Position numbers and translations under genes: made by a program. Positions 3,317 through 64,000 of a stretch of DNA of 64,000 nucleotides are shown here, one piece after another (positions within the stretch are counted from its first letter, which is position 1; every line of letters begins with the position of its first letter). The DNA is taken from positions 2,130 to 66,129 of the forward strand of contig JAMPXO010000012.1 in NCBI GenBank assembly GCA_023701125.1, read 5' to 3'. The stretch comes from Vicinamibacteria bacterium. GTDB lineage: Bacteria > Acidobacteriota > Vicinamibacteria > Fen-336. Under the pieces are notes generated by a model. That model searched no databases. It worked only from the letters and a program-made list of their open reading frames with translations, and had not been told where the DNA came from.

Positions 3317-3320
<4 letters not shown>

Positions 3321-3898
3321 GCGTGATCGCTGCCCTCGGCGAGCGCCGCGGCCTGGCGACCCTGGCGCTGGTCCTGGTCGTGCTCGACCAGTGGACGAAG
3401 AGCCTGGTGGTGGCCCGCCTGCGCCTGCACGAGAGCGCCGAGGTGATCGCCGGTTTCGTCGACCTGACCCACGTCCGCAACCGCGGCGGCGCCTTCGGCT
3501 TCCTGGCCGACGCCAACCTGCCGATGCAGCCGCTGTGGTTCGGCGCCATCGGCGTGGTCGCCACCTGCGCCATCGCCTGGTACTCGCTGCGCACGCCGAT
3601 GACCGAGCGGATCGTGCAGTGGGCGCTGGCGCTGGTGCTGTCGGGCGCCGTCGGCAACCTGATCGACCGCGCCCGCTTCGGCTACGTGATCGACTTCGTC
3701 GACGTCTACTGGGGGCCGCACCACTGGCCGGCCTTCAACGTCGCCGACTCGGCGATCACCGTCGGCGTGGTGCTGCTGGTGATCGACATGCTGCGCCGGC
3801 CCGACGAGGAGCCGGCACCTTCCCCGGACCAACCCGCCTCCGCGGGCCCCGGCGCCGCCGATGGCGGCAGCCCGCGGGTCGCGGCGGCCGCGGAGTAG
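3317..3898 (+). CDS. lspA: Lipoprotein signal peptidase II
   Basis: [13 protein letters not shown]...DQWTKSLV...NRGGAFGF...NLIDR...VIDFVD...[12 protein letters not shown] overlap with the ileS stop. ileS-lspA is a classical conserved pair. Confidence 0.93.
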
Positions 3899-3907
3899 AC
3901 CCCCTCC

Positions 3908-4741
3908 ATGTTCCCGCGCCTGTTCACGATCCCGGCCTTCGACCTCGCCGGCCGCAGCCTCGGCCCGTTCACGCTGCACAGCTACGGCCTGCTGCTCGCC
4001 GTCGCCTTCATCTCCGGCCTGTGGATCGCCTCGCGCCAGGCCAAACGCGAGGGGCTCGACCAGAACCGCGTCGCCGACCTCGCCATCTACGTGCTGCTGT
4101 CGGGCCTGCTCGGCGCCAAGCTGATGCTGCTGATCGTCGAGTGGCGCGGCTTCACCTGGAGCGTGTCCGAGCTGATGACGCTGCTGCAGAGCGGCGGCGT
4201 GTTCTACGGCGGGCTGCTGCTGGCGCTGCCGGTGGCCTTCTGGTACGCGCGCCACTACGGACTCGACGTGTGGAAGACCGCCGACGCGCTGGCCCCGGGC
4301 GTGATCCTCGGCCAGGCCATCGGCCGCCTCGGTTGCCTGTGCGCCGGTTGCTGCCACGGGCGGCCCACCGACCTGCCGTGGGGCGTCACCTACACCGACG
4401 AGTACGCGTCGCGCACCGTGGGCGTGCCGCTGGGCCAGACGATGCACCCGGTCCAGCTCTACGAGTCGGTGCTGGCCTTCGCCATCCTGTGGTGGCTGCT
4501 GCGCGCGGCGAAGCGGAAGAAGTTCGACGGCCAGATCGTGCTGTCCTACCTCGGTCTCTACGCCGTGGCCCGCTTCGGGCTCGAGACCTTCCGCGGCGAC
4601 GTCGCCCGCGGCTTCGCGTTCGGCGGCCTGCTGTCGACCTCGCAGCTCGTGGCGATCGGGATGTTCGTGCTGGCGGCGGTGCTGTGGCCGCGGCTGTCGC
4701 GCTCGCGCAAGCTGGACCCGGCACCCGCCGTCGAAGGCTGA
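3908..4741 (+). CDS. lgt: Prolipoprotein diacylglyceryl transferase
   Basis: 277 aa multi-TM protein with Lgt signature blocks (HSYGLLLAVAF, GRLGC..AGCCHGRPTDLPWGV, HPVQLYES). Confidence 0.95.
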   Translation: MFPRLFTIPAFDLAGRSLGPFTLHSYGLLLAVAFISGLWIASRQAKREGLDQNRVADLAIYVLLSGLLGAKLMLLIVEWRGFTWSVSELMTLLQSGGVFYGGLLLALPVAFWYARHYGLDVWKTADALAPGVILGQAIGRLGCLCAGCCHGRPTDLPWGVTYTDEYASRTVGVPLGQTMHPVQLYESVLAFAILWWLLRAAKRKKFDGQIVLSYLGLYAVARFGLETFRGDVARGFAFGGLLSTSQLVAIGMFVLAAVLWPRLSRSRKLDPAPAVEG

Positions 4742-13742: not shown

Positions 13743-14957
13743 CTAGTAGGCGAGCTGCATCCGCCAGAGCAGGGCGTTCTCGGCCGCGCGATCGCGGCCC
13801 GCGGCGCCGCCCTCGAAGGTGGTGCGCTCGTAGTCGAACATCGTCCGGACGTTGCGGTTGAGGTACCAGTTGAGTCCCACGCCCAGCGCCAGGGCCTTGC
13901 GGGCGGAGCGGGTCGGGTCCGCGTACCCACCGTCGAAGACCGCGTCCTCTGCCTCGAAGCCGGAGACGCGGGCCTTCAACTCCCAGGCGCCACGGCCGCC
14001 CTTCTGCGGATCGAACGGGCGCTTCGGTGTGATGGCTCCGAGCGAGGCCTTCTCGCCGGTCAGCAGCCAGACGCCAGTCACGGTCCAGGCCGAGAGCTTG
14101 ACCTTCTCGTCGACGCCGCCGCGAACCACGGCCTGGTCGCTGACGACGTACTCCACGAACCCGGCGACGGGGCCCGCGGCGAAGCTGGCCTGCGGCGCGA
14201 GGCGGAAGCGGTTGCCATCCGCGGTGGTGCCGGCCGCGAACTGGAAGTACGCCGCCTGGGCCGTGGTGCGCAGGGCCGGCAGCAGGCCCTTCTGGGTGCC
14301 GGTGGTGATCGCGATGCCGAAGCCGAGCGCCTTCCACGCGCCCTCGGACTTCCACAGCGGCTTCACGAACAGCCGCGCCGCCACGTCCTTCGCGTCGTTG
14401 CCGTCGATGTCGACCGCGGCGCCGTTCTGCAACGCGGCCGCGTACAGCAGCGGCCCGGACTCGCCCTGGAACTGCACGCCGACGTCGCGACTCGGCGTCA
14501 GGCCGCTGGTCAGCGAGCGCTCCACGAACGGCAGCCAGTTCGCAGACTGCAGCTTCTCCAGGCTGAACGGCGTCTTGAACTTGCCGGCCCGGAAGCGGGC
14601 CGCGCGCGAGCGGATCACCTCGACGTACGCGTCCTGGATCGCGGCCGAGCCGCCGCCGAAGTCGGGCACGAAGACGGCCTCGAACGCCTTGCCCACCGTG
14701 ACCTGGAGCGAGGGGCGCATGCGGCGCAGCAGGAAGGTGTCGGTCACGGCAAGGGCGTCGTCGCCGGGCACGAAACGTCCGTCGAGCTGGGCGACGCCGT
14801 AGAACCGCAACTTCCAGAAGCCGTCCGCCGACGCGAACGAGAAGCCGTCCGCCCCCGCCTGCACCTTGACCGGGGTCGGCGCTTCGTCCGCCGCGCGTGC
14901 GACTCCCGCGCCGAGCAGGACCGCCACCATCCCAATGCCCATGATCCTGGTAGACAT
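13743..14957 (-). CDS. Anion-selective porin, phosphate-selective porin O/P (OprO/OprP) family
   Basis: Signal peptide, then the typical N-terminal block (FKLRFYGVAQLDGRF...LLRRMRPSLQ...FRAGKFKTPFSLE) and a C-terminal aromatic residue (LAY). Confidence 0.85.
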   Translation of the reverse strand: MSTRIMGIGMVAVLLGAGVARAADEAPTPVKVQAGADGFSFASADGFWKLRFYGVAQLDGRFVPGDDALAVTDTFLLRRMRPSLQVTVGKAFEAVFVPDFGGGSAAIQDAYVEVIRSRAARFRAGKFKTPFSLEKLQSANWLPFVERSLTSGLTPSRDVGVQFQGESGPLLYAAALQNGAAVDIDGNDAKDVAARLFVKPLWKSEGAWKALGFGIAITTGTQKGLLPALRTTAQAAYFQFAAGTTADGNRFRLAPQASFAAGPVAGFVEYVVSDQAVVRGGVDEKVKLSAWTVTGVWLLTGEKASLGAITPKRPFDPQKGGRGAWELKARVSGFEAEDAVFDGGYADPTRSARKALALGVGLNWYLNRNVRTMFDYERTTFEGGAAGRDRAAENALLWRMQLAY

Positions 14958-14975
14958 ATCTCCGAGGTCGTCCTT

Positions 14976-15659: not shown

Positions 15660-15682
<23 letters not shown>
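15521..15682. repeat. Tandem direct repeat: two identical 79-nt units (15521-15599, 15604-15682) separated by AAGC
   Basis: Read directly. Each unit contains a GGGGGC...GCCCCC hairpin and a CCGGCGCCGGA-TTCAC-TCCGGCGTCGG hairpin. The second unit supplies the last 7 codons and stop of metH (GQVPTPE*). Confidence 0.9.
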
Positions 15683-19367
<3,685 letters not shown>

Positions 19368-19453
19368 GGCAACGCGATTCTAGCGTCCGGCGCGTGCACG
19401 GCCCGCAGCTATGACGCGCGGGGATCGCCGGCGCTCGTGGCATTCTAGGGGTC

Positions 19454-20717: not shown

Positions 20718-20816
20718 TGGCGGAAGCGTGTGGGAATCGAACCCACCGCCGAGGGTTTCACCCCCCGGCCGGACGGCTTTGAAGGCCGCGCGAGTCACCA
20801 GACCCGATTCGCTTCC
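20718..20816 (-). tRNA. selC: tRNA-Sec (anticodon UCA)
   Basis: 99 nt: GGAAGCGAAUCGGGUCUGGUGACUCGCGCGGCCUUCAAAGCCGUCCGGCCGGGGGGUGAAACCCUCGGCGGUGGGUUCGAUUCCCACACGCUUCCGCCA. It has a long acceptor stem, a 6-bp D-stem with a 4-nt loop, a CUUCAAA anticodon loop, a long 7-bp variable arm, GGUUCGAUUCC, discriminator G and an encoded CCA. The layout parallels E. coli selC. Confidence 0.9.
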
Positions 20817-20934: not shown

Positions 20935-21179
20935 CCGGTTCGTGCGATGTTCCTCCCCGAGCCGACGCCAGCCAGGCCCTGAGGACCCACGCGGTCTGCC
21001 CACGGGGGCGCGTCATCCCGCCCCGGCTGCCGAGGCTCTCTTTCTCCTCCGTCCATTCCTTCCAAGCGCGGGGAGGTGGCCGCAGGGCCGCTTCCCCGCT
21101 CCGGGCCTTCCGACCCTTCAAGATCCTGCCCGGCTTCTGAGTGCCAATCGAACGTTATGATCGGCCGCCTGAGGCCCCG

Positions 21180-22124
21180 ATGAACCAGCGAGCGCGGAAC
21201 GAAGCGGACCCCGGGGCGCGCCTGTCGATCGGCGCGCTCTCGCGGGCGACGGGGGTGCCCGTCGAGACCCTGCGCACCTGGGAGGCGCGCTACGGCTTCC
21301 CGGTGCCGGAGCGCAAGCCGTCCGGGCATCGCGTGTACCCGACGACGTCGATCCCGCGCCTGCTCCGCATCGCCGAAGCGCTGGCCCGCGGACACCGCGC
21401 GGGACAGGTGGTCGCCGCCTCCGACTCCGACCTCGACGAGTTGCTGCTGGTGACGCCACCGGCACTGCCGGCGCCGGCAGCGCCGGCCCCGGCGATGCGC
21501 AGCACGGAAGTCCTGCTCGACCACGTCGAGCGCTTCGACGCCGACCGCCTGACCCGGGCCCTGCTCGGCGAGTGGGCACGCCGCGAGCCCGTCGACTTCC
21601 TCGTGCAGGTGATCGCGCCGCTGGTGCGGGCGGTCGGCCTGGCCTGGGAGGAGCGCCGGCTCGAGGTGCGCCACGAGCACTTCTTGTCGGAGCGCGTCGG
21701 CGACCTGTTGCGCTCGCTGCGGCTGCCGCTCGAGGAGCGGGCGCGCGGGCCGCTGGTCGTGCTCGGCTCGCTGCCCGGCGAGAGCCACGGGCTCGGGCTG
21801 CAGATGGTGGCACTGGTGCTGGCCGCGGCCGGCTGCCGGCTGCTCTACCTCGGCACGGAGGTGCCGCCCGACCAGATCGCCGCCCTGGCCCGCGACCTCG
21901 GCGCTCGCGCGCTCGGCCTCAGCATCTCGGCCGCGACCGGCGGCGCCGCGTCGAACGCCCAGTTGCGCCGGCTGCGGGCCGCCCTGCCCCGCCGCATCCA
22001 GTTGCTGGTCGGCGGCGCGGGCGCGCCGAAGAAGAGCGAAGGCATCGAGGTCATCACCGATCTGGCGGTGCTCGACGCCTGGGCGCGGCAGCGCGTGGCC
22101 CGCTCGGAGCTGCGGCCGAGCTGA
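21180..22124 (+). CDS. CarH/LitR-type MerR-family regulator with an adenosylcobalamin-binding photosensory domain
   Basis: N-terminal MerR HTH (LSIGALSRATGVPVETLRTWEARYGFP), then W-x9-EH (AWEERRLEVRHEHF) and the B12-binding ExHxxG...SxS...GG pattern (GESHGLG, GLSIS, LLVGGAG). Confidence 0.85.
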   Translation: MNQRARNEADPGARLSIGALSRATGVPVETLRTWEARYGFPVPERKPSGHRVYPTTSIPRLLRIAEALARGHRAGQVVAASDSDLDELLLVTPPALPAPAAPAPAMRSTEVLLDHVERFDADRLTRALLGEWARREPVDFLVQVIAPLVRAVGLAWEERRLEVRHEHFLSERVGDLLRSLRLPLEERARGPLVVLGSLPGESHGLGLQMVALVLAAAGCRLLYLGTEVPPDQIAALARDLGARALGLSISAATGGAASNAQLRRLRAALPRRIQLLVGGAGAPKKSEGIEVITDLAVLDAWARQRVARSELRPS

Positions 22125-38777: not shown

Positions 38778-38854
<77 letters not shown>

Positions 38855-56608: not shown

Positions 56609-59600
56609 ATGAAACGCTCCACGCTTGCCACCCTCGCGCTCGCCGCGACCGTCTTCGCCGCGGCGGCGTCCGCTGCCGCGGCGACGGACGAGGCGCGCTT
56701 CATGGCCCGGCCGGATGTCCATGGCGACCGCATCGTCTTCGCCTGGGACGGAGACCTGTGGGTCACCACCGTGACCGGCGCGGCGCCGGTGCGGCTGACC
56801 AGCCACCCCGCCGCCGAGACCGCGCCGCGCTTCTCGCCCGACGGCCAGTGGATCGCCTTCGTCGGCGCGTACGACGGCAGCGACGACGTGTACGTGATCC
56901 CGTCCGCGGGCGGCTTGCCGAAGCGGCTGGGCTTCCTGCCGGGCGGCGGCACGCCTGCCTGCTGGACGCCGGACTCCCGCCACGTCGTGTTCGCGAGCCG
57001 CTGGGGCGTCGGGCCGGTGGCCCGCGATCAGCGGCTGTACCGGGTCGCGCTCGACGGCTCGCTGCCGGAGCCGCTGCCGCTCGACCGCGGGGTCGCGTGC
57101 AGCTATTCGGCGGACGGCCAGCGCCTGGCCTACGTCCGCAAGGGCAACCAGGACTACTACTGGAAGCGCTACAAGGGCGGCCAGTACACCGACATCTGGA
57201 TGTACGACGTCGCGACCGCCGCGTTCGCACCGCTGACCGACTACGTCGGCCGCAACACGTACCCGATGTGGGTCGGCGACCAGATCTACTTCGCCTCCGA
57301 CCGCGGGCCCGGCGGCATCACCAACCTGTTCCGGATGGACCCGAAGACGAAGGCCGTCGAACAGGTCACCCACTTCACCGACGTCGACGTGCTGAGCCCG
57401 GGCGCGGACCGCAAGCGGATCGTCTTCACCCAGGACGGCTACCTGCACGTGATGGAGCCGGGCGCGGCTCCGCGCAAGGTGAGCGTGCGCATCCCCTCGG
57501 ACGACTGGCGGCTGCACGACCGCTGGATCAACCCCGCCGAGTACACCCAGTCGGTCGACGCCGCGGGCGACGGCAAGGCGCTGGTGATCTCGGCCCGTGG
57601 CGACGTGTTCCGGCTGGCGCTGGAGGGCGAGAAGGACGTGCGCCCGCGCAACCTGACCGGCACCCCCGGCGTGCGCGAGGCGAACCCGCGAGTGTCCCCC
57701 GACGGCAAGAGCGTCGCGTACTTCTCGGACGAGACCGGCGAGTACCAGCTCTACAAGCGCGAGATCGCCACCGGCGCGGTCACCCGCCTGACCGACGACC
57801 TGAAGCGCACGCCCTACAAGCCGATCTGGTCGCCCGACGGCAAGAAGCTGGCCTTCGGCAACCGCGACTTCGTGATCTTCGTGCTCGACGTCGCCACCCG
57901 GAAGCTGACCCGGGTCGACGAGTCGCGCTTCCTCGACAACGACCAGTTCACCTGGGAGCAGGCCGACTACGCGTGGTCGCCCGACGGCCGCTGGCTCGCC
58001 TACTCGTTGACTCGTGAGAACCGCAACAACGCGATCTATCTCTACGACACCGTGAGCGCCCAGCGCACGCCACTGACCGACGACTTCTTCGACAACCTGA
58101 ACCCGCGCTGGGACGCTGACGGCGGCTTCCTGTACTTCCTCTCCAACCGCAACTTCGAGATCGGGATGGACGTGTTCGAGGACAACCATGTGGTCGTCAA
58201 CCCGACCCGCCTGATGGTGGTCCAGTTGCGCAAGGGCGAGAAGCCCCCGTTTGCCAAGCCGGTGCTGCCGGAGGCGGACAAACCCGCCGAGACGCCGGCG
58301 AAGACGCCCGACAGGGCGGCCGACAAGCCGGCCGCGAAGCCCGACGACGCGCGCTTCCGGGTCGACGTCGAGGGCATCGCCGCGCGTGTGTTCCAGGCCC
58401 CGGTCGATCCGGGCCACTTCTTCCACCTGGTGGCCGGCAAGGGCCACGCGGCGTGGCTGTCGGTGCCGCAGTTCACCGAGGACGAGTACGAGGAGTTCTA
58501 CCGCGTCGGCGGCCGCACCAAGTGGACGCTGAACGTCTTCTCGATGAAGGACGAGAAGGTGGTCGCGGCCGACGACAAGGTCGCCCAGGCCGAGATCTCG
58601 GCCAACGGCGAGCAGGTGGTGATCCGCAAGGACGGCAAGCTGTTCCTGACCCAGCTCGACAAGGTCTACGCGTCGAAAAAGCTCGGCCGCGAGGTCGAGA
58701 CCGCCGGGCTCACGTACCGCGTGTCGCCGCGGGCGGAGTGGCGGCAGATCTTCGCCGACGCCTGGCGCTGGTACCGCGACTTCTTCTACGACAAGGACAT
58801 GCACGGCCTCGACTGGAAGGCGCTCGGCGACCGCTACCGCGCGTACGTCGAGCAGATCCGCAACCGCGACCAGCTCAACTGGGTGCTGCTGCAGATGGTC
58901 GGCGAGCTGTCCGTGTCGCACACCTACGTCGGCGGCGGCGACATGGGCCCGTCGGTCACCCCGCCCACTCCGGCCGTCTCGACGGCAAGCCTCGGCGTCG
59001 ACCTCGCCGCCGACGCCGCCTCCGGCCTCTACCGCTTCGCCCGCATCTACGGCCCGACGCCGTACTTCAGCCAGGTGCAGACGCCGCTCGCGCGCCCGGA
59101 CATCGAGCTGAAGAAGGGCGACTACCTGATCGCGATCAACGGCCAGAAGCTGCGCGCGCCCGAGAACTACTTCAAGCTGCTCCAGGTCGGCAAGGAGGAC
59201 CTGGTCGAGGTGACCGTGGCCAGCGCCCCGACGGGGCCGACCCGCACGTACCGGGTCAAGCCGTTGCGCACCGAGCGCGAGGCCCGCTACGCGGCGTGGG
59301 TCAGCGACAACGTCGACAAGGTGCTGGCGGCGTCGAACGGCGAGCTCGGCTACATGCACATCACCGCGATGGGCGGCGGCGGCGTGATGGAGTTCGACAA
59401 GTTCTGGCGCGCGTTCCGCTACAAGAAGGGGCTCGTGATCGACGTCCGCGGCAACGGCGGCGGCTGGACCGAGTACTTCATGATCGACAAGCTCGAGCGC
59501 CAGCAGGTGGCGTACAACGTGCTGCACGGCATGGAGCCCTACCGCTACCCGAACACCGCCTCGCGCGCCCACTTCGTGGTCGTCTCCAACGAGGACAACG

Positions 59601-59941
59601 GCTCGGACGGCGAGGCCTTCGTCGAGCACTTCAAGGCCCGCCAGCTCGGCACCGTGGTCGGCGTGCCGTCGTGGGGCGGCCTGGTCGGCATCATCAACGG
59701 CCAGCCGACGATCGACAACGGCACCGTCCACCAGTCGAACAACGCGTTCTACGGCAAGGACGGGAAGTGGCTGGTCGAGAACCACGGCGCCGACCCGGAC
59801 GTGCTGATCGACAACGACCCGGCCTCGGTCACGGCGGGCAAGGACGCCCAGCTCGACAAGGCGATCGCGGTGGCGCTGGAGAAAATCAAGACCGAGCCCT
59901 GGCAGTTCCCGCCAGTGCCGGCGTATCCGAAGAAGAAGTAG
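56609..59941 (+). CDS. Tricorn-protease-like S41 peptidase with tandem beta-propellers and PDZ
   Basis: Signal peptide after AGGAGGA-ATG. The N-terminal block RFMARPDVHGDRIVFAWDGDLW... and the C-terminal S41 block (VIDVRGNGGG) match. About 1110 aa. Confidence 0.88.
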   Translation: MKRSTLATLALAATVFAAAASAAAATDEARFMARPDVHGDRIVFAWDGDLWVTTVTGAAPVRLTSHPAAETAPRFSPDGQWIAFVGAYDGSDDVYVIPSAGGLPKRLGFLPGGGTPACWTPDSRHVVFASRWGVGPVARDQRLYRVALDGSLPEPLPLDRGVACSYSADGQRLAYVRKGNQDYYWKRYKGGQYTDIWMYDVATAAFAPLTDYVGRNTYPMWVGDQIYFASDRGPGGITNLFRMDPKTKAVEQVTHFTDVDVLSPGADRKRIVFTQDGYLHVMEPGAAPRKVSVRIPSDDWRLHDRWINPAEYTQSVDAAGDGKALVISARGDVFRLALEGEKDVRPRNLTGTPGVREANPRVSPDGKSVAYFSDETGEYQLYKREIATGAVTRLTDDLKRTPYKPIWSPDGKKLAFGNRDFVIFVLDVATRKLTRVDESRFLDNDQFTWEQADYAWSPDGRWLAYSLTRENRNNAIYLYDTVSAQRTPLTDDFFDNLNPRWDADGGFLYFLSNRNFEIGMDVFEDNHVVVNPTRLMVVQLRKGEKPPFAKPVLPEADKPAETPAKTPDRAADKPAAKPDDARFRVDVEGIAARVFQAPVDPGHFFHLVAGKGHAAWLSVPQFTEDEYEEFYRVGGRTKWTLNVFSMKDEKVVAADDKVAQAEISANGEQVVIRKDGKLFLTQLDKVYASKKLGREVETAGLTYRVSPRAEWRQIFADAWRWYRDFFYDKDMHGLDWKALGDRYRAYVEQIRNRDQLNWVLLQMVGELSVSHTYVGGGDMGPSVTPPTPAVSTASLGVDLAADAASGLYRFARIYGPTPYFSQVQTPLARPDIELKKGDYLIAINGQKLRAPENYFKLLQVGKEDLVEVTVASAPTGPTRTYRVKPLRTEREARYAAWVSDNVDKVLAASNGELGYMHITAMGGGGVMEFDKFWRAFRYKKGLVIDVRGNGGGWTEYFMIDKLERQQVAYNVLHGMEPYRYPNTASRAHFVVVSNEDNGSDGEAFVEHFKARQLGTVVGVPSWGGLVGIINGQPTIDNGTVHQSNNAFYGKDGKWLVENHGADPDVLIDNDPASVTAGKDAQLDKAIAVALEKIKTEPWQFPPVPAYPKKK

Positions 59942-60577
59942 CTACTTCGCGGCGAGCTTCGCGGCTTCGTCAGGGGTGGTCTGCGAGCGGGCGGGGCTCT
60001 TTCCGAACCAGCGCATCGGAGGGATCGGCCGGCCGGCCGCGCAGCTCTCGATCAAGATCGCCAGGCGCTTCTCGCGCGTGTCTTCCTTCTTTGCGCTCAT
60101 CACCCACTGCTTCGCGGCGGCGCGGTACGAGGGCGCCTGCGCCTGAAAGTACTTCCACGCCGCCTCGTCCGCGCGCAGCGCCTTCAGCCCCGCGGCGCTC
60201 AGCTCGATGGAGTGACGCTGCTCATACGAATACGGCCCTGCCTGGACCTTGCTCCGTCGCTCGTACGCGCGCAGCCCGGACGGCTGCATGCGCCGCTGGG
60301 CGATCAGCTCCTTCACGCGCTTCAGGTTCACGGCGCTCCAGTGGCTGCTCGGCTTGCGCGGAGTGAAACGAATCGTGTAGCTCTCCTCGCCGAGGCTCGT
60401 CCGCACCCCGTCGATCCAGCCGTAACACAGGGCCTCGTCGACCGACTGGGGCCAGGTGAGGCTCGGCTTGCCGGTCTTGGCCTTGTGGAAGCCGACCAGC
60501 AGCTCGCTGTGGGTGTCGTGATGCGCCTCGAGCCAGGCGCCGAACTGCGCGGGAGTGGCGAAGAACCGCGGTTTCAT
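59942..60577 (-). CDS. YdeI/OmpD-associated family protein
   Basis: FATPAQFGAWLEAHH...ELLVGFHK...EALCYGWIDG is the typical YdeI (DUF1801-related) N-terminus. ATGA overlap with the upstream peroxiredoxin stop. Confidence 0.8.
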   Translation of the reverse strand: MKPRFFATPAQFGAWLEAHHDTHSELLVGFHKAKTGKPSLTWPQSVDEALCYGWIDGVRTSLGEESYTIRFTPRKPSSHWSAVNLKRVKELIAQRRMQPSGLRAYERRSKVQAGPYSYEQRHSIELSAAGLKALRADEAAWKYFQAQAPSYRAAAKQWVMSAKKEDTREKRLAILIESCAAGRPIPPMRWFGKSPARSQTTPDEAAKLAAK

Positions 60578-61086
60578 GGCAGCCCCAGCGCGGCGAGCTT
60601 CGCGGCGATGTCGTTGCCCGCGGAGCTCGTCTTCACGTCCTTGTCGACGAACAGGATTCGGCCGTCGGCGCCGATGTAGAACGTCCAGCGCTTCGCCACG
60701 CCGACCAGCGGCATCAACACCCCGTACGCCTTCGCGACCTGCTTGTCGGGGTCGGACAGGATCGGGTAGTCGAGGCCGAGCGAACGCGCGAACTCCGCGT
60801 TCTTCTGCGGCGGGTCGACGCTGGCGGCGAAGTGGACGACGTCGAATGCCCGGATCTTCTCGCCGCTCTCACGGAGCGACTTGCACTCCCGCGTTCAACC
60901 CGAAGTCGCCGCCTTCGGGAACCAGGCCAGGACGACGGCCTTGCCGCGCAGCGCGGCCAGCGTGTGGGAGCGGCCGTCCGAGCCGACCAGGGTGAAGTCG
61001 GGGGCGGCGTCGCCCGGCTTCAGGTCGGCGCCCGAAGCCGTCCACGACGCCAGCAGCGACAGACCGATGCTGGCCGGGTTCCGCAT
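60574..61086 (-). CDS. Secreted BCP/AhpC-TSA-type peroxiredoxin with selenocysteine (TGA 60895-60897) at the peroxidatic position
   Basis: My translation across the TGA: ...GKAVVLAWFPKAATSG-U-TRECKSLRESGEKIRAFDVVHFAASVDPPQKNAEFARSLGLDYPILSDPDKQVAKAYGV...RWTFYIGADGRI... The TGA aligns with Cys of the F/YPKA.T.GCT.E Prx motif. The reading frame, GC3 and family similarity all continue for 106 codons after it. Confidence 0.8.
60870..60893 (-). promoter_or_regulatory. Candidate bacterial SECIS hairpin
   Basis: Minus-strand RNA immediately 3' of the UGA: A-CGCGGGAGUG[CAAGU]CGCUCCGUG. This gives about 9 bp including G.U pairs and one bulged G. The apical loop carries GU 15-16 nt after the UGA. Confidence 0.4.
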
Positions 61087-61218
61087 CTTCAACAGGCCCT
61101 CCGCTAGACGACGCTCGATTGTCCCGCCGCCGCCCCACGACCACAAGGCGCGCGGCCCGCCACTCGCACGGCGCGCGGGAGTAGGATCACTAGGTTTTTC
61201 GACAGCGGGGCCCGCCCG

Positions 61219-63171
61219 ATGGAACCTCTTGATCCACCCCTCGACTACACCGCGGTCGGCCTCATCTCGGGCCTGGAGGTGCACCAGCAGCTCCTGACCG
61301 AGCGGAAGCTGTTCTGCCACTGTCCCGCCGGGCGCTACACCCGCACGCACGACGGCACGGTGCTGCGCCACATGCGGCCGACGCTCTCGGAGCTGGGCGT
61401 CTACGACGGCACGGCGCTGATGGAGTTCAAGACCAAGAAGCACATCGTCTACCTCCTCAACCGCGCCAACACCTGCACCTACGAGATGGACGACACGCCG
61501 CCCTTCCCCGTCAACCAGGCGGCGATCGATGTGGCGATCGAGCAGTGCCTGATGCTCGGCTGCGACATCGTCGACGAGGTCCACATCGCGCGGAAGCAGT
61601 ACCTCGACGGCTCGATCCCCACCGGCTTCCAGCGCACCGCGATCGTCGGCGTCAACGGCCAGCTCCCGTTCCGCGGCCGCCACCTCTCGATCACCCAGGT
61701 CAGCGTGGAAGAGGACTCGTGCCGCGAGGTCTCCGACCGCGGCCACCTGATCGTGTGGCGCACCGACCGCCTCGGCATGCCGCTGATCGAGACGGTCACC
61801 GGGCCCGACCTGCGCACGCCGGACGAGGTCGAAGAGGCGATCCTGCTGGTCGGCCGCGTGTGCCGCTCGACCGGCCACGTCCGAGTCGGCATGGGCGCCA
61901 GCCGCCAGGACGTCAACGTGTCGGTCCGCGGCGGCCGGCGGGTCGAGATCAAGGGCGTGCCGCAGGCGGGCTGGGCGCCGCGGCTCGTCCACGGCGAGGC
62001 GTGGCGCCAGGTCAACCTGCTGCGCCTGCGCGACGAGTTGCACGGCCGCGGCTTCCGCGCGGCCGCCGACCTCCGGGTCGAGACGGCCGATGTCACGGCA
62101 CTCGCGGCCGTGTCCCGCCTCGCCCCGCTGTGCGCGGAGAACTGGGAGGCGTTCGTGCGCGGCCAGAGCCGGCGGCCGGACTTCGAGCTCGGCCCGGGCC
62201 CCTTCCGCGTGCTCGCCGTGCGCCTCGTCGGCCTGGCCGGCACGCTCGCCTGGCCGACCCAGCCGCGGCGCACGTTTGCCGACGAGCTGAAGGGCCGCGT
62301 GCGAGTGATCGCCGGCCTCGACCAGGCGCCGATCCTGTTCCACTCCGAGGACTGGCCGCCCGCTGCCGCGGACGAGCTGGCGCCGCTGCGGGCTGCGGCC
62401 GGTTGCGGCGAACGCGACGGGCTGGTCGTCGTCTGGGGGCCGGAGCGCGACGTGCGCACCGCCGCGGACGAGATCCGGCTCCGCTACGTGGACGCCACCG
62501 ACGGCGTGCCGAACGAGACGCGGCAGCCGTTCGTCGACGGCTCGACCGACTTCGAGCGCATCCTGCCGGGGCCGGACCGGATGTACCCGGACACCGACTC
62601 CCCGCCCACCCGCGTCACCCGCGAGCGCGTCGACGGCCTGCGCACGACCCTGCCCGAGCGCCCGTGGGAACGCGAGAGCCGGTACGCGACGGCGGGCGTG
62701 CCGATCCACGTCGCCCACTACCTGATCCGCCGCGGCGGGGCTGCGCTCGTGGACCGCGTCGTCGACGAGGCCGGCGCGGACCTGCGCTTCACCGCCTTCT
62801 TCTTCGGCGAGCGGCTCAAGGGCCTGCGCCGCGCCGGCGTCGATGTCGACGCGGTCGCCGCCGACGCGTGGGTTGCGCTGTTCCACGCCATCGCCGCCCG
62901 ACCCGAGCTGCGTGAGGCCTGGGCACCACTGGCCCGGCGGATGGCGGCCGGCGAAGCGCTCGACGCCGTGCTCGGCGAGTTCACCGCGCAGGTCGACTGG
63001 CGAGCGGGGCTCGCGGAGTGGATGCAGGCGGCGGAGCGCGAGGCCTACGACGGCAACCGAGACCGCCTGCTGCGCCACGCGACGGGCAAGGCGATGGACG
63101 CCCTGCGCGGTCGCGTCTTCGCGGGGCTGGTGACCGAGGCCGTGAGAGCGGCCGTGGAGGCGAAGGCATGA
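61219..63171 (+). CDS. gatE: Glu-tRNA(Gln) amidotransferase subunit E (archaeal-type GatE)
   Basis: GLEVHQQL...KLFCHC, RPTLSELG, EMDDTPPFP and the GatE-specific ARKQYLDGSIPTGFQRT (GatB has RKNYFYPDLPKGYQISQ). 650 aa with a GatB/YqeY-like tail. Confidence 0.88.
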   Translation: MEPLDPPLDYTAVGLISGLEVHQQLLTERKLFCHCPAGRYTRTHDGTVLRHMRPTLSELGVYDGTALMEFKTKKHIVYLLNRANTCTYEMDDTPPFPVNQAAIDVAIEQCLMLGCDIVDEVHIARKQYLDGSIPTGFQRTAIVGVNGQLPFRGRHLSITQVSVEEDSCREVSDRGHLIVWRTDRLGMPLIETVTGPDLRTPDEVEEAILLVGRVCRSTGHVRVGMGASRQDVNVSVRGGRRVEIKGVPQAGWAPRLVHGEAWRQVNLLRLRDELHGRGFRAAADLRVETADVTALAAVSRLAPLCAENWEAFVRGQSRRPDFELGPGPFRVLAVRLVGLAGTLAWPTQPRRTFADELKGRVRVIAGLDQAPILFHSEDWPPAAADELAPLRAAAGCGERDGLVVVWGPERDVRTAADEIRLRYVDATDGVPNETRQPFVDGSTDFERILPGPDRMYPDTDSPPTRVTRERVDGLRTTLPERPWERESRYATAGVPIHVAHYLIRRGGAALVDRVVDEAGADLRFTAFFFGERLKGLRRAGVDVDAVAADAWVALFHAIAARPELREAWAPLARRMAAGEALDAVLGEFTAQVDWRAGLAEWMQAAEREAYDGNRDRLLRHATGKAMDALRGRVFAGLVTEAVRAAVEAKA

Positions 63172-64000
63172 ACGCCCCCGATCCGCTCAAGGGCTACCGG
63201 GGCCGGGCGCGGGCCCGGCTCGAGGGCTTCGGCGTCCGCGTGTGGAGCGACGTGGTGGCCACCAACGACGCGGGCAGCGCCTTCGAGGGCGTGATCCTGC
63301 CCCGCTCCGAGTCGGCCGACGACGAGCACGTCGTGCTCAAGCTGAAGACCGGCTACAACGTCGGCCTCCACGTCGACCGCCTGCGCTCGATGCGCGAGAT
63401 CGGCTACAAGGAAGCGATCTACAAGATCCCGGAGCAGGAGTTCCCCTCGCGGCCGCACCTGCCGAAGGTGACCCTGCTCGGCACCGGCGGCACCATCGCT
63501 TCGCGGCTCGACTACCGCACCGGCGCGGTGATCCCCGCGTTCACGCCGGGCGAGCTGTACGGCGCTGTGCCCGAGCTGGCCGATCTCGCCAACCTGACCA
63601 CGAAGAAGCTGTTCGGCGTGTTCTCCGAGAACATGGCCAAGCCGCAGTACGTCGAGCTGGCCGAGGCCATCGGCCGCGAGATCGCGGAGGGCGTCGACGG
63701 TATCGTGATCGGCCACGGCACCGACACCATGGGCCACACGGCCGCGATCCTCTCGTTCATGGTCCAGGACACACCGGTGCCGATCGTGATGGTCGGCTCG
63801 CAGCGCTCGAGCGATCGCCCCTCGAGCGATGCCGCGTTGAACCTGATCCACGCGGTGCGAGCGGCGGGCCGCGGCCGGATCGCCGAGGTCCAGATCTGCA
63901 TGTTCGGCCCGACCTCGGACCAGTACGCGCTGCTCCACCGCGGCACCCGCTGCCGCAAGATGCACAGCTCCTACCGCTCGACGTTCCGCACCCTCGGCGG
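63168..64000 (+). CDS. gatD: Glu-tRNA(Gln) amidotransferase subunit D (archaeal-type GatD, asparaginase-like), 3'-truncated by the window
   Basis: My own translation: GatD N-domain, then the asparaginase motifs LLGTGGTIAS and GHGTDTM. ATGA overlap with the gatE stop. It is absent from the ORF track because it has no stop in the window. Confidence 0.88.
   Translation, partial: MNAPDPLKGYRGRARARLEGFGVRVWSDVVATNDAGSAFEGVILPRSESADDEHVVLKLKTGYNVGLHVDRLRSMREIGYKEAIYKIPEQEFPSRPHLPKVTLLGTGGTIASRLDYRTGAVIPAFTPGELYGAVPELADLANLTTKKLFGVFSENMAKPQYVELAEAIGREIAEGVDGIVIGHGTDTMGHTAAILSFMVQDTPVPIVMVGSQRSSDRPSSDAALNLIHAVRAAGRGRIAEVQICMFGPTSDQYALLHRGTRCRKMHSSYRSTFRTLG

Follow-up and report, generated by a model that had tools for sequence, protein, structure and literature searches.

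Introduction

The GatDE amidotransferase is a classic molecular signature of the Archaea, and it has been central to the debate on the entry of glutamine into the genetic code and on the fact that archaea never gained GlnRS. Reviews restrict GatDE to the archaea (PMC8007984, PMC9499178), in which glutamine is served by GatDE and asparagine by GatCAB (PMC2330236, PMC9499178), and the archaeal enzyme recognizes the A1-U72 pair of tRNA(Gln) (PMC2330236). According to one of these reviews (PMC9499178), a LUCA origin of GatDE has been proposed by Sheppard and Soll. No report of a bacterial GatDE was found in the literature searched. Here we describe a gatE-gatD locus at the extreme end of a 64,000-nucleotide stretch of contig sequence (hereafter, the window) and compare it with related genome loci, designated by L numbers, and with archaeal GatDE references comprising two solved structures (M. 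thermautotrophicus, PDB 2D6F; P. abyssi, PDB 1ZQ1) and the family models TIGR00134/NF003107 and TIGR02153/NF003217.

Results

Layout and genomic context of the locus

The features of the window are listed in Table 1. The start of gatE was read as the first start codon downstream of a stop, and the gene called independently on Logan contig L001, which carries the same gatD further, to 352 aa, is identical. The stop codon of gatE (TGA, 63169-63171) and the start codon of gatD (ATG, 63168-63170) overlap, implying that the two genes would be translationally coupled. This organization is common among relatives: gatD lies directly downstream of gatE on the same strand in 70 of 80 related genome loci, and the genes overlap in 41 of the 80. 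The divergent region upstream is presumably the promoter region of gatE; a scan of 60500-64000 matched neither sigma-70-like promoters nor intrinsic terminators, and no tRNA or Rfam family was found in the intergenic region itself.

Table 1. Coordinates of the gatE-gatD locus and of context features in the window.
Feature	Position	Strand	Description
LspA	3320-3895		Window context
Lgt	3899-4738		Window context
OprO/P porin	13746-14975	-	Window context
tRNA-Sec	20718-20816	-	Window context
tRNA-Met(CAU)	38778-38854	-	Window context
Divergent intergenic region	61087-61218	.	132 bp, between peroxiredoxin gene (-) and gatE (+)
gatE	61219-63171	+	tRNA-dependent kinase/amidotransferase subunit; 650 aa, complete; catalytic cradle, AspRS-like insertion, helical domain and YqeY-like tail
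ATGA overlap	63168-63171	+	gatE stop/gatD start, read directly from the sequence as GCATGAAC
gatD, 5' part	63168-64000	+	Glutaminase subunit; first 277 of ~464 aa, the remainder lying beyond the window

The contig is bacterial. The context genes of Table 1, together with a gene for IleRS, bear out the first-pass annotation on this point, and its further statements, that the GC content and codon bias of the pair fit those of the neighboring genes and that the pair looks resident, also agree with the data. GC content varies between 0.67 and 0.77 along the whole window, and gatE shows values of 0.75/0.51/0.94 by codon position, with the GC3 of other window genes lying mostly at 0.9-0.97. The gene immediately upstream of gatE encodes a selenocysteine peroxiredoxin and is intact, not a truncated fragment. 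The independently assembled L001 is 100% identical to positions 58756-64000, including the 61.1 kb junction at which a chimera had been envisaged. The nearest relatives (70-85% identity) are found on contigs of up to 0.96 Mb named Vicinamibacteria or Acidobacteria, and relatives at 64-83% identity lie within long bacterial contigs of up to 2.5 Mb. The gatE-gatD pair hence looks resident, neither contaminating nor chimeric.

Identity of GatE and GatD

The window GatE scores above the equivalog cutoff of the archaeal GatE model TIGR00134 (gatE_arch; 377.7 bits, cutoff 319.55) and slightly under the stricter cutoff of NF003107 (440.2 bits, cutoff 456), with the HMM alignment spanning residues 8-647 and Pfam GatB_N covering residues 17-471. 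GatB models, by contrast, remain below their equivalog cutoffs (59-120 bits, cutoffs 315-680). The protein aligns over its full length with PDB 2d6f_C (E=6e-86), and the best Foldseek matches of its AF2 model (pLDDT 82.5) are 1zq1_C and the 2d6f GatE (E ~1e-41; TM 0.76-0.80, normalized to the target), against ~1e-21 for GatB. Weak matches to AspRS were also obtained, and these probably stem from the AspRS-like insertion of GatE. An assignment as GatB was rejected, with the GatB HMMs falling far under their cutoffs and the solved structures and the AF2 model favoring GatE.

The window GatE carries the full GatE domain set (Table 1). Across 182 GatE sequences, drawn from both clades of the tree described below, conservation reaches 97% or more in 55 alignment columns, all of which are present in the window protein. 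They include E20, H22, E164, and E191, which align with M. thermautotrophicus E13, H15, E157, and E184 and which we take to have active-site or metal-binding roles in the kinase/amidotransferase core. The last 181 residues align colinearly with the L072 GatE tail (E=2e-12), and for members of the L072 clade PF02637 (GatB_Yqey) is annotated in a precomputed Pfam column. Pfam detects no PF02637 in the window GatE, the tail domain of which is YqeY-like, and, given this divergence, recognition of the tRNA D-loop may have diverged as well.

The GatD part contains GatD_N (PF18195, residues 28-71) and Asparaginase (PF00710, residues 100-275) domains, with the motifs TGGTIAS, HGTDTM, and RKMH starting at residues 106, 183, and 263. 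With only 277 of ~464 residues inside the window, it reaches 306 bits with NF003217 (cutoff 310) and 299.7 bits with TIGR02153 (cutoff 324). A type I or type II L-asparaginase was considered and rejected, as the GatD_N domain is present and the subfamily scores fall under their cutoffs (type I asparaginase TIGR00519, 201 bits, cutoff 260.5; TIGR00520, 102 bits, cutoff 314). Residues T109, T185, D186, and K264 align with M. thermautotrophicus GatD positions 101, 177, 178, and 254, which we take to be the catalytic tetrad of that enzyme. A full-length relative, the 464-aa GatD of L004, aligns with 1zq1_A (E=7e-120). Clade-B GatDs, as defined below, bear a conserved C-terminal tail of ~20 aa that is lacking in the two crystallized archaeal GatDs, and their identity across phyla, at 62-83%, points to strong purifying selection of the kind seen in essential genes. 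The initial description of the locus as a full-length GatE, not a GatB, coupled through ATGA to a GatD that is no plain asparaginase, is hence sustained by HMM scores, solved structures, the AlphaFold model, and the motifs and GatD_N domain of GatD.

A large, mostly bacterial GatDE clade

Relatives of the window GatE were found in at least 583 species-level genomes of one genome collection, and a bacterial label is attached to 79 of the best 80 of these relatives. In an unrooted tree of 182 GatE sequences, 110 of them, including the window GatE, form a clade (clade B) that split from the 72 canonical archaeal sequences (clade A) in 100/100 bootstraps. The window GatE shows 28-37% identity to canonical archaeal proteins and 35-82% to members of clade B; for GatD, identity to canonical archaeal proteins is 46-52%. 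The block RKQYLDGSIPTGFQRT (GatE residues 125-140), which the first-pass annotation had singled out as GatE-specific, is indeed present, and it recurs in 99 of the 110 clade-B sequences. It is absent, however, from all 72 canonical archaeal sequences, which carry RK[TI]V[IV]DGSNTxGFQRT in its place, so that on this distribution the block is a marker of clade B and not of archaeal GatE at large.

Within clade B, the window sequence falls in a subclade composed mostly of Acidobacteriota. Identity inside this phylum declines roughly with taxonomic distance, from 83% in Vicinamibacteria through 64-72% in Thermoanaerobaculia to 55-61% in Holophagaceae, Solibacteraceae, and Terracidiphilus. Other hosts of clade B belong to the Ignavibacteria/Bacteroidota/Chlorobiota group, the Planctomycetota, and further groups. 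Complete or near-complete genomes with a clade-B gatE-gatD pair include CP070718.1 (Phycisphaerales), OY970271.1 (Ignavibacteriales), OY820579.1, and CAVQPK010000002.1 (Acidobacteriota, 2.5 Mb contig). Among deep-branching representatives, names were obtained for only two MAGs, one of Deltaproteobacteria and one of Heimdallarchaeota. The named relatives recovered in three protein searches were all MAGs, with no isolate among them. One true archaeal group, Thermoplasmatales ex4572_165 and relatives, is nested within the clade. Pfam analysis of the genes flanking the L072 member gave no clear verdict on whether its host is bacterial or archaeal, but TBP and Trm56 are encoded on the L083/L084 contigs, identifying the host of L072-like clade-B GatDE as archaeal. 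Judged by its sequences, clade B is a large, deeply branching, mostly bacterial GatDE clade. The pair had at first been presented as an archaeal-type oddity on a bacterial contig; the number of genomes involved and the bootstrap split replace that view with membership in a family that is already named by annotation pipelines and databases, and of which the window locus is one recognizable member.

Genes neighboring gatE

A tRNA-Gln(CUG) or tRNA-Gln-like gene lies within ~250 bp of gatE at six independent loci (L009, L016, L018, L083/L084, L087, and L145), making up six of the eight tRNA genes that adjoin gatE in ~170 loci; the other two are tRNA-Asn (L099) and tRNA-Ser (L167). In the bacterial tRNA-Gln genes read by ARAGORN (L009, L016, and L018), the first pair is U1-A72, whereas in the archaeal clade-B locus L083 it is A1-U72. 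No tRNA-Gln was found in the window, and hence none beside its gatE. A 95-nt tRNA-Asn called by ARAGORN in L011 has mismatched stems and was set aside as a probable false positive. Glutamine synthetase adjoins gatE in L072 and L082 and is encoded nearby in L036 and L078. When the flanking ORFs were clustered all against all, no conserved neighbor besides gatD emerged; the other large clusters were antisense ORFs of gatE and gatD.

At L018 and L087, the tRNA gene adjoining gatE has a stop-reading anticodon, CUA or UUA, and is likely derived from tRNA(Gln). Stop-codon usage gives no sign of full stop-codon reassignment at either locus, TAG terminating two ORFs in L018 and TAA the flagellin gene in L087. 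Because amidotransferases of the GatDE type do not read the tRNA anticodon, such genes could conceivably provide, in combination with a clade-B GatDE, a ready route to stop-codon-to-glutamine suppression.

Discussion

The window quite probably contains a functional operon of two genes, gatE and gatD, from an acidobacterium likely of the class Vicinamibacteria. The operon most likely serves ordinary synthesis of Gln-tRNA(Gln) on a bacterial U1-A72 tRNA(Gln), because the catalytic residues have been kept and tRNA-Gln-type genes lie beside gatE at six loci. By homology with the archaeal enzyme, the pair would be catalytically active, and the reaction would proceed as in archaea: GatD would hydrolyze glutamine, or asparagine, to free ammonia, and GatE would take Glu-tRNA(Gln), phosphorylate the glutamyl gamma-carboxyl with ATP, and amidate it to yield Gln-tRNA(Gln). 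We infer that the substrate is a bacterial-type tRNA(Gln) with U1-A72, and not A1-U72, as its first pair, and that Glu-tRNA(Gln) is supplied by a non-discriminating GluRS.

The provenance of the pair admits several readings. A chimera, with an archaeal fragment fused near 61.1 kb to bacterial sequence, could be suspected from the terminal position of the genes in the window and from reviews describing GatDE as exclusive to archaea (PMC8007984, PMC9499178), but its probability is practically negligible: L001 crosses the junction without a mismatch, the GC3 of gatE agrees with that of adjacent genes, the upstream peroxiredoxin gene is intact, close relatives reside inside megabase-scale bacterial contigs, and deep clade-B members adjoin Mur ligases, MraZ and Lnt, a T9SS tail domain, or flagellin. 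It is likewise highly improbable that this single bacterium acquired canonical archaeal GatDE through a recent horizontal transfer. The family was originally defined on archaeal members, and clade-B genes do occur in Thermoplasmatales ex4572_165 and related archaea, but the window GatE is closer to clade B than to canonical archaeal GatE, the two clades are separated in every bootstrap replicate, identity decays roughly along taxonomy within the Acidobacteriota, and the composition of gatE shows no anomaly. It can be proposed, more tentatively and against somewhat unfavorable odds, that clade B is an old, largely vertical bacterial GatDE lineage, sister to all canonical archaeal GatDE. If so, GatDE would be no archaeal signature, would either predate the split between Bacteria and Archaea or have crossed domains very early, and would have adapted to U1-A72 tRNA(Gln).

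Alternatives to ordinary glutamine charging concern what the enzyme amidates and how it shares this work with GatCAB. The suggestion that a GatDE-like enzyme was recruited to a different amidation substrate, either some other misacylated tRNA or a carboxylate that is not on a tRNA, was made when the locus was first annotated and has found no support. It could draw on the Vicinamibacteria tail domain, too diverged for Pfam, on the C-terminal tail of clade-B GatD, and on the stop-anticodon tRNAs (L018 and L087) and the tRNA-Asn (L099) that adjoin gatE. It is improbable in view of the conserved core residues, of a full GatE architecture with a tail colinear with that of L072 and a GatE-like predicted fold, of the predominance of Gln-type genes among gatE-adjacent tRNAs, and of the linkage of glutamine synthetase at several loci. 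A division of labor or replacement, in which GatDE is the dedicated glutamine route and GatCAB is restricted to asparagine, or lost where AsnRS exists, is a serious possibility that we would put somewhat below even chances; it mirrors the archaeal arrangement and would refine ordinary Gln-tRNA(Gln) synthesis as the best explanation, not exclude it. Both the archaeal precedent (PMC2330236, PMC9499178) and the strong conservation of GatD across phyla, as in essential genes, speak in its favor. An HMM search found no gatB-like gene in the 2.0 Mb of flanking loci and the window, where only ~0.4 would be expected by chance; the sole weak match to a gatB HMM (25 bits) was a 170-aa ORF in L112, possibly a YqeY-like protein.

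A bacterial GatDE clade spanning hundreds of species-level genomes, strongly conserved and linked to bacterial-type tRNA(Gln), alters the data behind the arguments on glutamine in the genetic code. Clade-B and archaeal GatDE offer a natural experiment in tRNA recognition, U1-A72 against A1-U72, and bacteria endowed with a clade-B GatDE may rely on it rather than on GatCAB. Many of these hosts are abundant Acidobacteriota of soil and sediment. The single locus in the window is more ordinary, being one member of an already-named family.

Comparison with known systems

The closest described system is archaeal GatDE. Both are two-subunit enzymes in which GatE follows the domain order cradle, AspRS-like insertion, helical domain, and YqeY-like tail, and GatD combines GatD_N with an asparaginase fold and the four residues aligned to M. 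thermautotrophicus 101/177/178/254; the window GatE and the L004 GatD align over their full length with the solved structures, and the predicted GatE fold agrees. On the other hand, the window host is bacterial and its protein lies outside the canonical archaeal clade, in a separate clade with 28-37% (GatE) and 46-52% (GatD) identity, marked by RKQYLDGSIPTGFQRT instead of the archaeal motif. Clade B also differs in its gene order, gatE then gatD, usually overlapping, in the extra conserved C-terminal tail of GatD, and in the U1-A72 pair of the bacterial tRNA(Gln) found beside gatE, where the archaeal enzyme recognizes A1-U72 (PMC2330236).

With bacterial GatCAB, the pair would share its chemistry and the bacterial U1-A72 tRNA(Gln) substrate class, and GatB, the paralog of GatE, has the same cradle and tail folds (Foldseek E ~1e-21). 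The AspRS-like insertion, however, belongs to GatE, the GatB HMM scores (59-120 bits) lie well below their cutoffs (315-680), and the ammonia donor is an asparaginase-type GatD instead of the amidase GatA, without GatC. The clade-B GatDE of Thermoplasmatales ex4572_165 and its relatives (L072, L083, and L084) shares with the acidobacterial pair the clade, the signature motif, and the GatD tail, and its GatD is 67-70% identical to acidobacterial GatD. It differs in its archaeal host, with TBP and Trm56 on the same contig, in the divergent orientation of its gatD and gatE, and in the A1-U72 pair of the adjoining tRNA-Gln.

Identity and genomic setting of the gatE-gatD pair

The final 2.8 kb of the window are occupied by two forward-strand genes whose products are GatE and GatD. 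The first protein scores 377.7 bits on NCBIfam model TIGR00134 (curated cutoff 319.55) and, slightly below the cutoff of 456, 440 bits on NF003107, while its scores on six GatB models (59-120 bits) all fall short of cutoffs of 315-680. Over its whole length it can be aligned with the GatE crystal structures from Methanothermobacter thermautotrophicus (2d6f_C, E=6e-86) and Pyrococcus abyssi, and these are also the top Foldseek matches (E ~1e-41) of its AlphaFold2 model (mean pLDDT 82.5, pTM 0.81), followed by GatB chains (E ~1e-21) and then by weak matches to AspRS. An AspRS-like insertion sets GatE apart from GatB, and the weak AspRS matches of the model probably reflect it. The second protein presents a GatD_N domain and then an asparaginase domain (Pfam), its fragment scoring 306 and 300 bits on two GatD equivalogs, as against 201 on a type I asparaginase model. 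The gatE stop codon overlaps the gatD start codon (ATGA, read from the sequence). The first-pass annotation, which had described a full-length GatE, not GatB, translationally coupled to GatD, is thus borne out.

Residues T109, T185, D186 and K264 of GatD align with M. thermautotrophicus GatD positions 101, 177, 178 and 254, which we take to be catalytic. Across 182 aligned GatE proteins from both clades described below, 55 columns are at least 97% conserved and all are retained in the window GatE, including E20, H22, E164 and E191 (M. thermautotrophicus E13, H15, E157 and E184). Its C-terminal 181 residues form a confidently predicted helical domain in the AlphaFold2 model, colinear with the GatE tail of the related locus L072 (E=2e-12); clade members of the latter carry a YqeY-type Pfam domain, for which the window GatE itself gives no Pfam match.

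Pfam annotation of 37 window ORFs yields a bacterial gene set, in agreement with the initial view of the contig. The GC content is 0.67-0.77 everywhere in the window, and the GC3 of gatE (0.94) is similar to that of neighbouring genes. An assembly chimera at 61.1 kb was considered and no sign of it was found: a Logan contig (L001, run SRR23907158) is 100% identical to window positions 58756-64000 and therefore crosses the suspected junction, GC3 matches, and the gene directly upstream of gatE, a divergent peroxiredoxin gene, is intact. The pair can hence be regarded as resident rather than as contamination, as first proposed.

Features of the window and of related loci (L-numbers)
Feature	Sequence	Positions	Strand	Remarks
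gatE	window	61219-63171	+	650 aa
gatD, 5' part	window	63168 to window end	+	277 aa before window edge
PrxQ/BCP-type peroxiredoxin, secreted	window	60574-61086	-	in-frame TGA at 60895-60897
tRNA-Sec	window	20718-20816	-	
MetH	window	15663-19379	-	B12-dependent methionine synthase (Pfam)
MerR-family regulator fused to B12-binding domains	window	21141-22121	+	CarH-like architecture
IleRS, LspA, Lgt	window			classic order (Pfam)
OprO/P porin; ABC transporter parts	window			Pfam
ClpB-like ATPase, IspH, Ser/Thr kinase, tricorn-like protease	window			Pfam
gatD with C-terminal tail	L004	11970-13364		example of tail
tRNA, CUA (amber-reading) anticodon	L018	4188-4263	+	~60-80 bp upstream of gatE; Holophagaceae MAG
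tRNA-Gln-like, UUA (ochre-reading) anticodon	L087	328-402	+	70 bp upstream of gatE
tRNA-Gln, archaeal	L083	7867-7938		30 bp after gatE
tRNA-Gln, archaeal	L084	4680-4754		30 bp after gatE
tRNA-Asn(GUU)	L099	2781-2855	-	146 bp upstream of gatE; metagenome locus
tRNA-Ser(GGA)	L167	3695-3783	+	just downstream of gatE

The UGA of the peroxiredoxin gene falls exactly at the peroxidatic (catalytic) Cys position (...FPKAATSG-U-TRECK...), with positions 1-39 of the Pfam AhpC-TSA profile matched before it and 42-121 after it, and a hairpin ~17 nt downstream (z=-2.0) is a SECIS candidate. Gene callers split this ORF in L001 into fragments of 63 and 46 aa. A tRNA-Sec gene lies in the same window, and the protein is probably a selenoprotein. 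Separately, the CarH-like regulator gene adjoins the MetH and tRNA-Sec genes.

Distribution and phylogeny

The pair, first presented as archaeal-type on an otherwise bacterial contig, does not stand alone. More than 120 GatE sequences in the protein database are 70-85% identical to the window GatE; the named ones belong to Vicinamibacteria/Acidobacteria MAGs, with a few labelled Planctomycetes, and some lie on contigs of up to 0.96 Mb. Named relatives in the protein searches are exclusively MAGs, with no cultured host among them. Scanning one genome per GTDB species identified at least 583 genomes with GatE relatives, and metagenomes added a further 569. Among the best 80 genome loci, 79 are labelled bacterial, under labels taken as deposited and in some cases probably unreliable; they span Acidobacteriota (several classes, including Aminicenantes), Planctomycetota (including Phycisphaerae), Ignavibacteria, Bacteroidota, Chlorobiota, Rhodothermaceae, Myxococcota, Marinimicrobia, Eisenbacteria and others. 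In 70 of these 80 loci gatD directly follows gatE on the same strand, with the genes overlapping in 41; no other conserved neighbour of gatE was found among related loci. GatE identity in the best loci drops roughly with taxonomic distance, the pattern that long residence should leave.

HMMER, run exhaustively against 1.84 billion representative proteins, returned 631 clusters at E<=1e-30, and 182 full-length GatE sequences from genome loci, HMMER representatives and two PDB proteins were aligned. The unrooted neighbour-joining tree resolves two clades (bootstrap 100/100 on a 57-taxon subset): clade A (n=72), which includes the two archaeal GatEs of known crystal structure together with a protein from Heimdallarchaeota, and clade B (n=110), where the window GatE is joined by all bacterial loci and by three sequences whose labels read Thermoplasmatales or Thermoplasmata. 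The window GatE falls within an Acidobacteriota-dominated subclade of clade B; its identity is 28-37% with members of clade A and 35-82% with those of clade B. The RKQYLDGSIPTGFQRT motif, initially read as a GatE-specific block, is present in 99 of the 110 clade-B sequences and wholly absent from clade A, where the equivalent block is RK[TI]V[IV]DGSNTxGFQRT, and is thus a marker of clade B. Clade-B GatDs from different phyla share 62-83% identity, and 46-52% with two archaeal crystal GatDs. They measure 460-476 aa, compared with 435 and 438 aa, and end in a conserved tail of ~20 aa (NGY[LI]I.QGG[LI]PE..F), encoded outside the window, that the crystallised archaeal GatDs lack.

The L083 and L084 contigs also encode TBP and Trm56, so that the archaeal members of clade B are genuinely archaeal. 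In the tree these members are nested within bacterial sequences (bootstrap 100/100), and the deepest clade-B branches lie on bacterial contigs that encode Mur ligases, MraZ and Lnt, a T9SS tail domain, or flagellin; this pattern suggests a mainly bacterial clade B, with the archaeal group (L083, L084 and relatives) having acquired its genes. Clade B itself may be sister to archaeal GatDE or the product of a very early transfer, the tree being unrooted and built by neighbour joining only. In the archaeal group resembling Thermoplasmatales ex4572_165, which also takes in L072 and L082, clade-B gatD and gatE are arranged divergently. The chromosome that carries one Thermoplasmata-labelled member (P0189) measures 5.16 Mb, which is uncommonly large for an organism so labelled.

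Linkage to tRNA(Gln) and predicted function

In six independent loci among ~170 (L009, L016, L018, L083/L084, L087 and L145), gatE has a gene for tRNA-Gln(CUG), or one plainly derived from tRNA-Gln, no more than ~250 bp away, the only other adjoining tRNAs being those for Asn (L099) and Ser (L167). This linkage points to tRNA(Gln) as the predicted substrate. A glutamine synthetase gene adjoins gatE in L072 and L082, and lies nearby in L036 and L078. Archaeal GatDE is reported to recognise A1-U72, and bacterial GatCAB U1-A72 (PMC2330236). The archaeal tRNA-Gln of L083 has A1-U72, and the bacterial gatE-linked tRNAs of L009, L016 and L018 have U1-A72 (ARAGORN); by that rule, bacterial clade-B enzymes presumably accept U1-A72 tRNA(Gln).

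The most likely function is thus predicted to be the usual GatDE reaction, carried out in bacteria, and the window operon probably converts Glu-tRNA(Gln) to Gln-tRNA(Gln). The recruitment to a different amidation substrate envisaged by the first-pass annotation finds no positive support, given that core residues are kept and tRNA-Gln is linked to gatE in relatives; its observations stand in every detail checked, its interpretation only in part. No gatB-like gene occurs in 2.0 Mb of sequence flanking the loci, an uninformative result given ~0.4 expected by chance.

Two of the linked tRNAs have stop anticodons. That of L018, homologous to the tRNA-Gln(CUG) in the equivalent place in L016, shows a compensatory anticodon-stem change and a pyrimidine at position 37 (56.7 bits, Rfam tRNA model); there is no sign of full TAG reassignment in L018, where TAG terminates two ORFs on the contig. 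That of L087 (46.5 bits) has the acceptor end GGGG...CCCCAGCCA with G73, an A1/A72 mismatch and U at position 37, on a bacterial contig with a flagellin gene terminating in TAA.

Relation to known GatDE systems

Pipelines at NCBI and JGI already name clade-B proteins GatE, so the locus is not new to databases. Reviews from 2021 and 2022 describe GatDE as archaea-only (PMC8007984; PMC9499178), and a full-text literature search, with most subscription journals outside its coverage, found no paper describing bacterial GatDE; clade B itself appears undescribed. It contradicts the textbook archaea-only statement and opens an evolutionary question, the weight resting on the clade rather than on any single locus. 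Clade B is distinguished by its bacterial hosts, a distinct signature motif, gatE-gatD coupling, the GatD C-terminal tail and linkage to U1-A72 tRNA(Gln).
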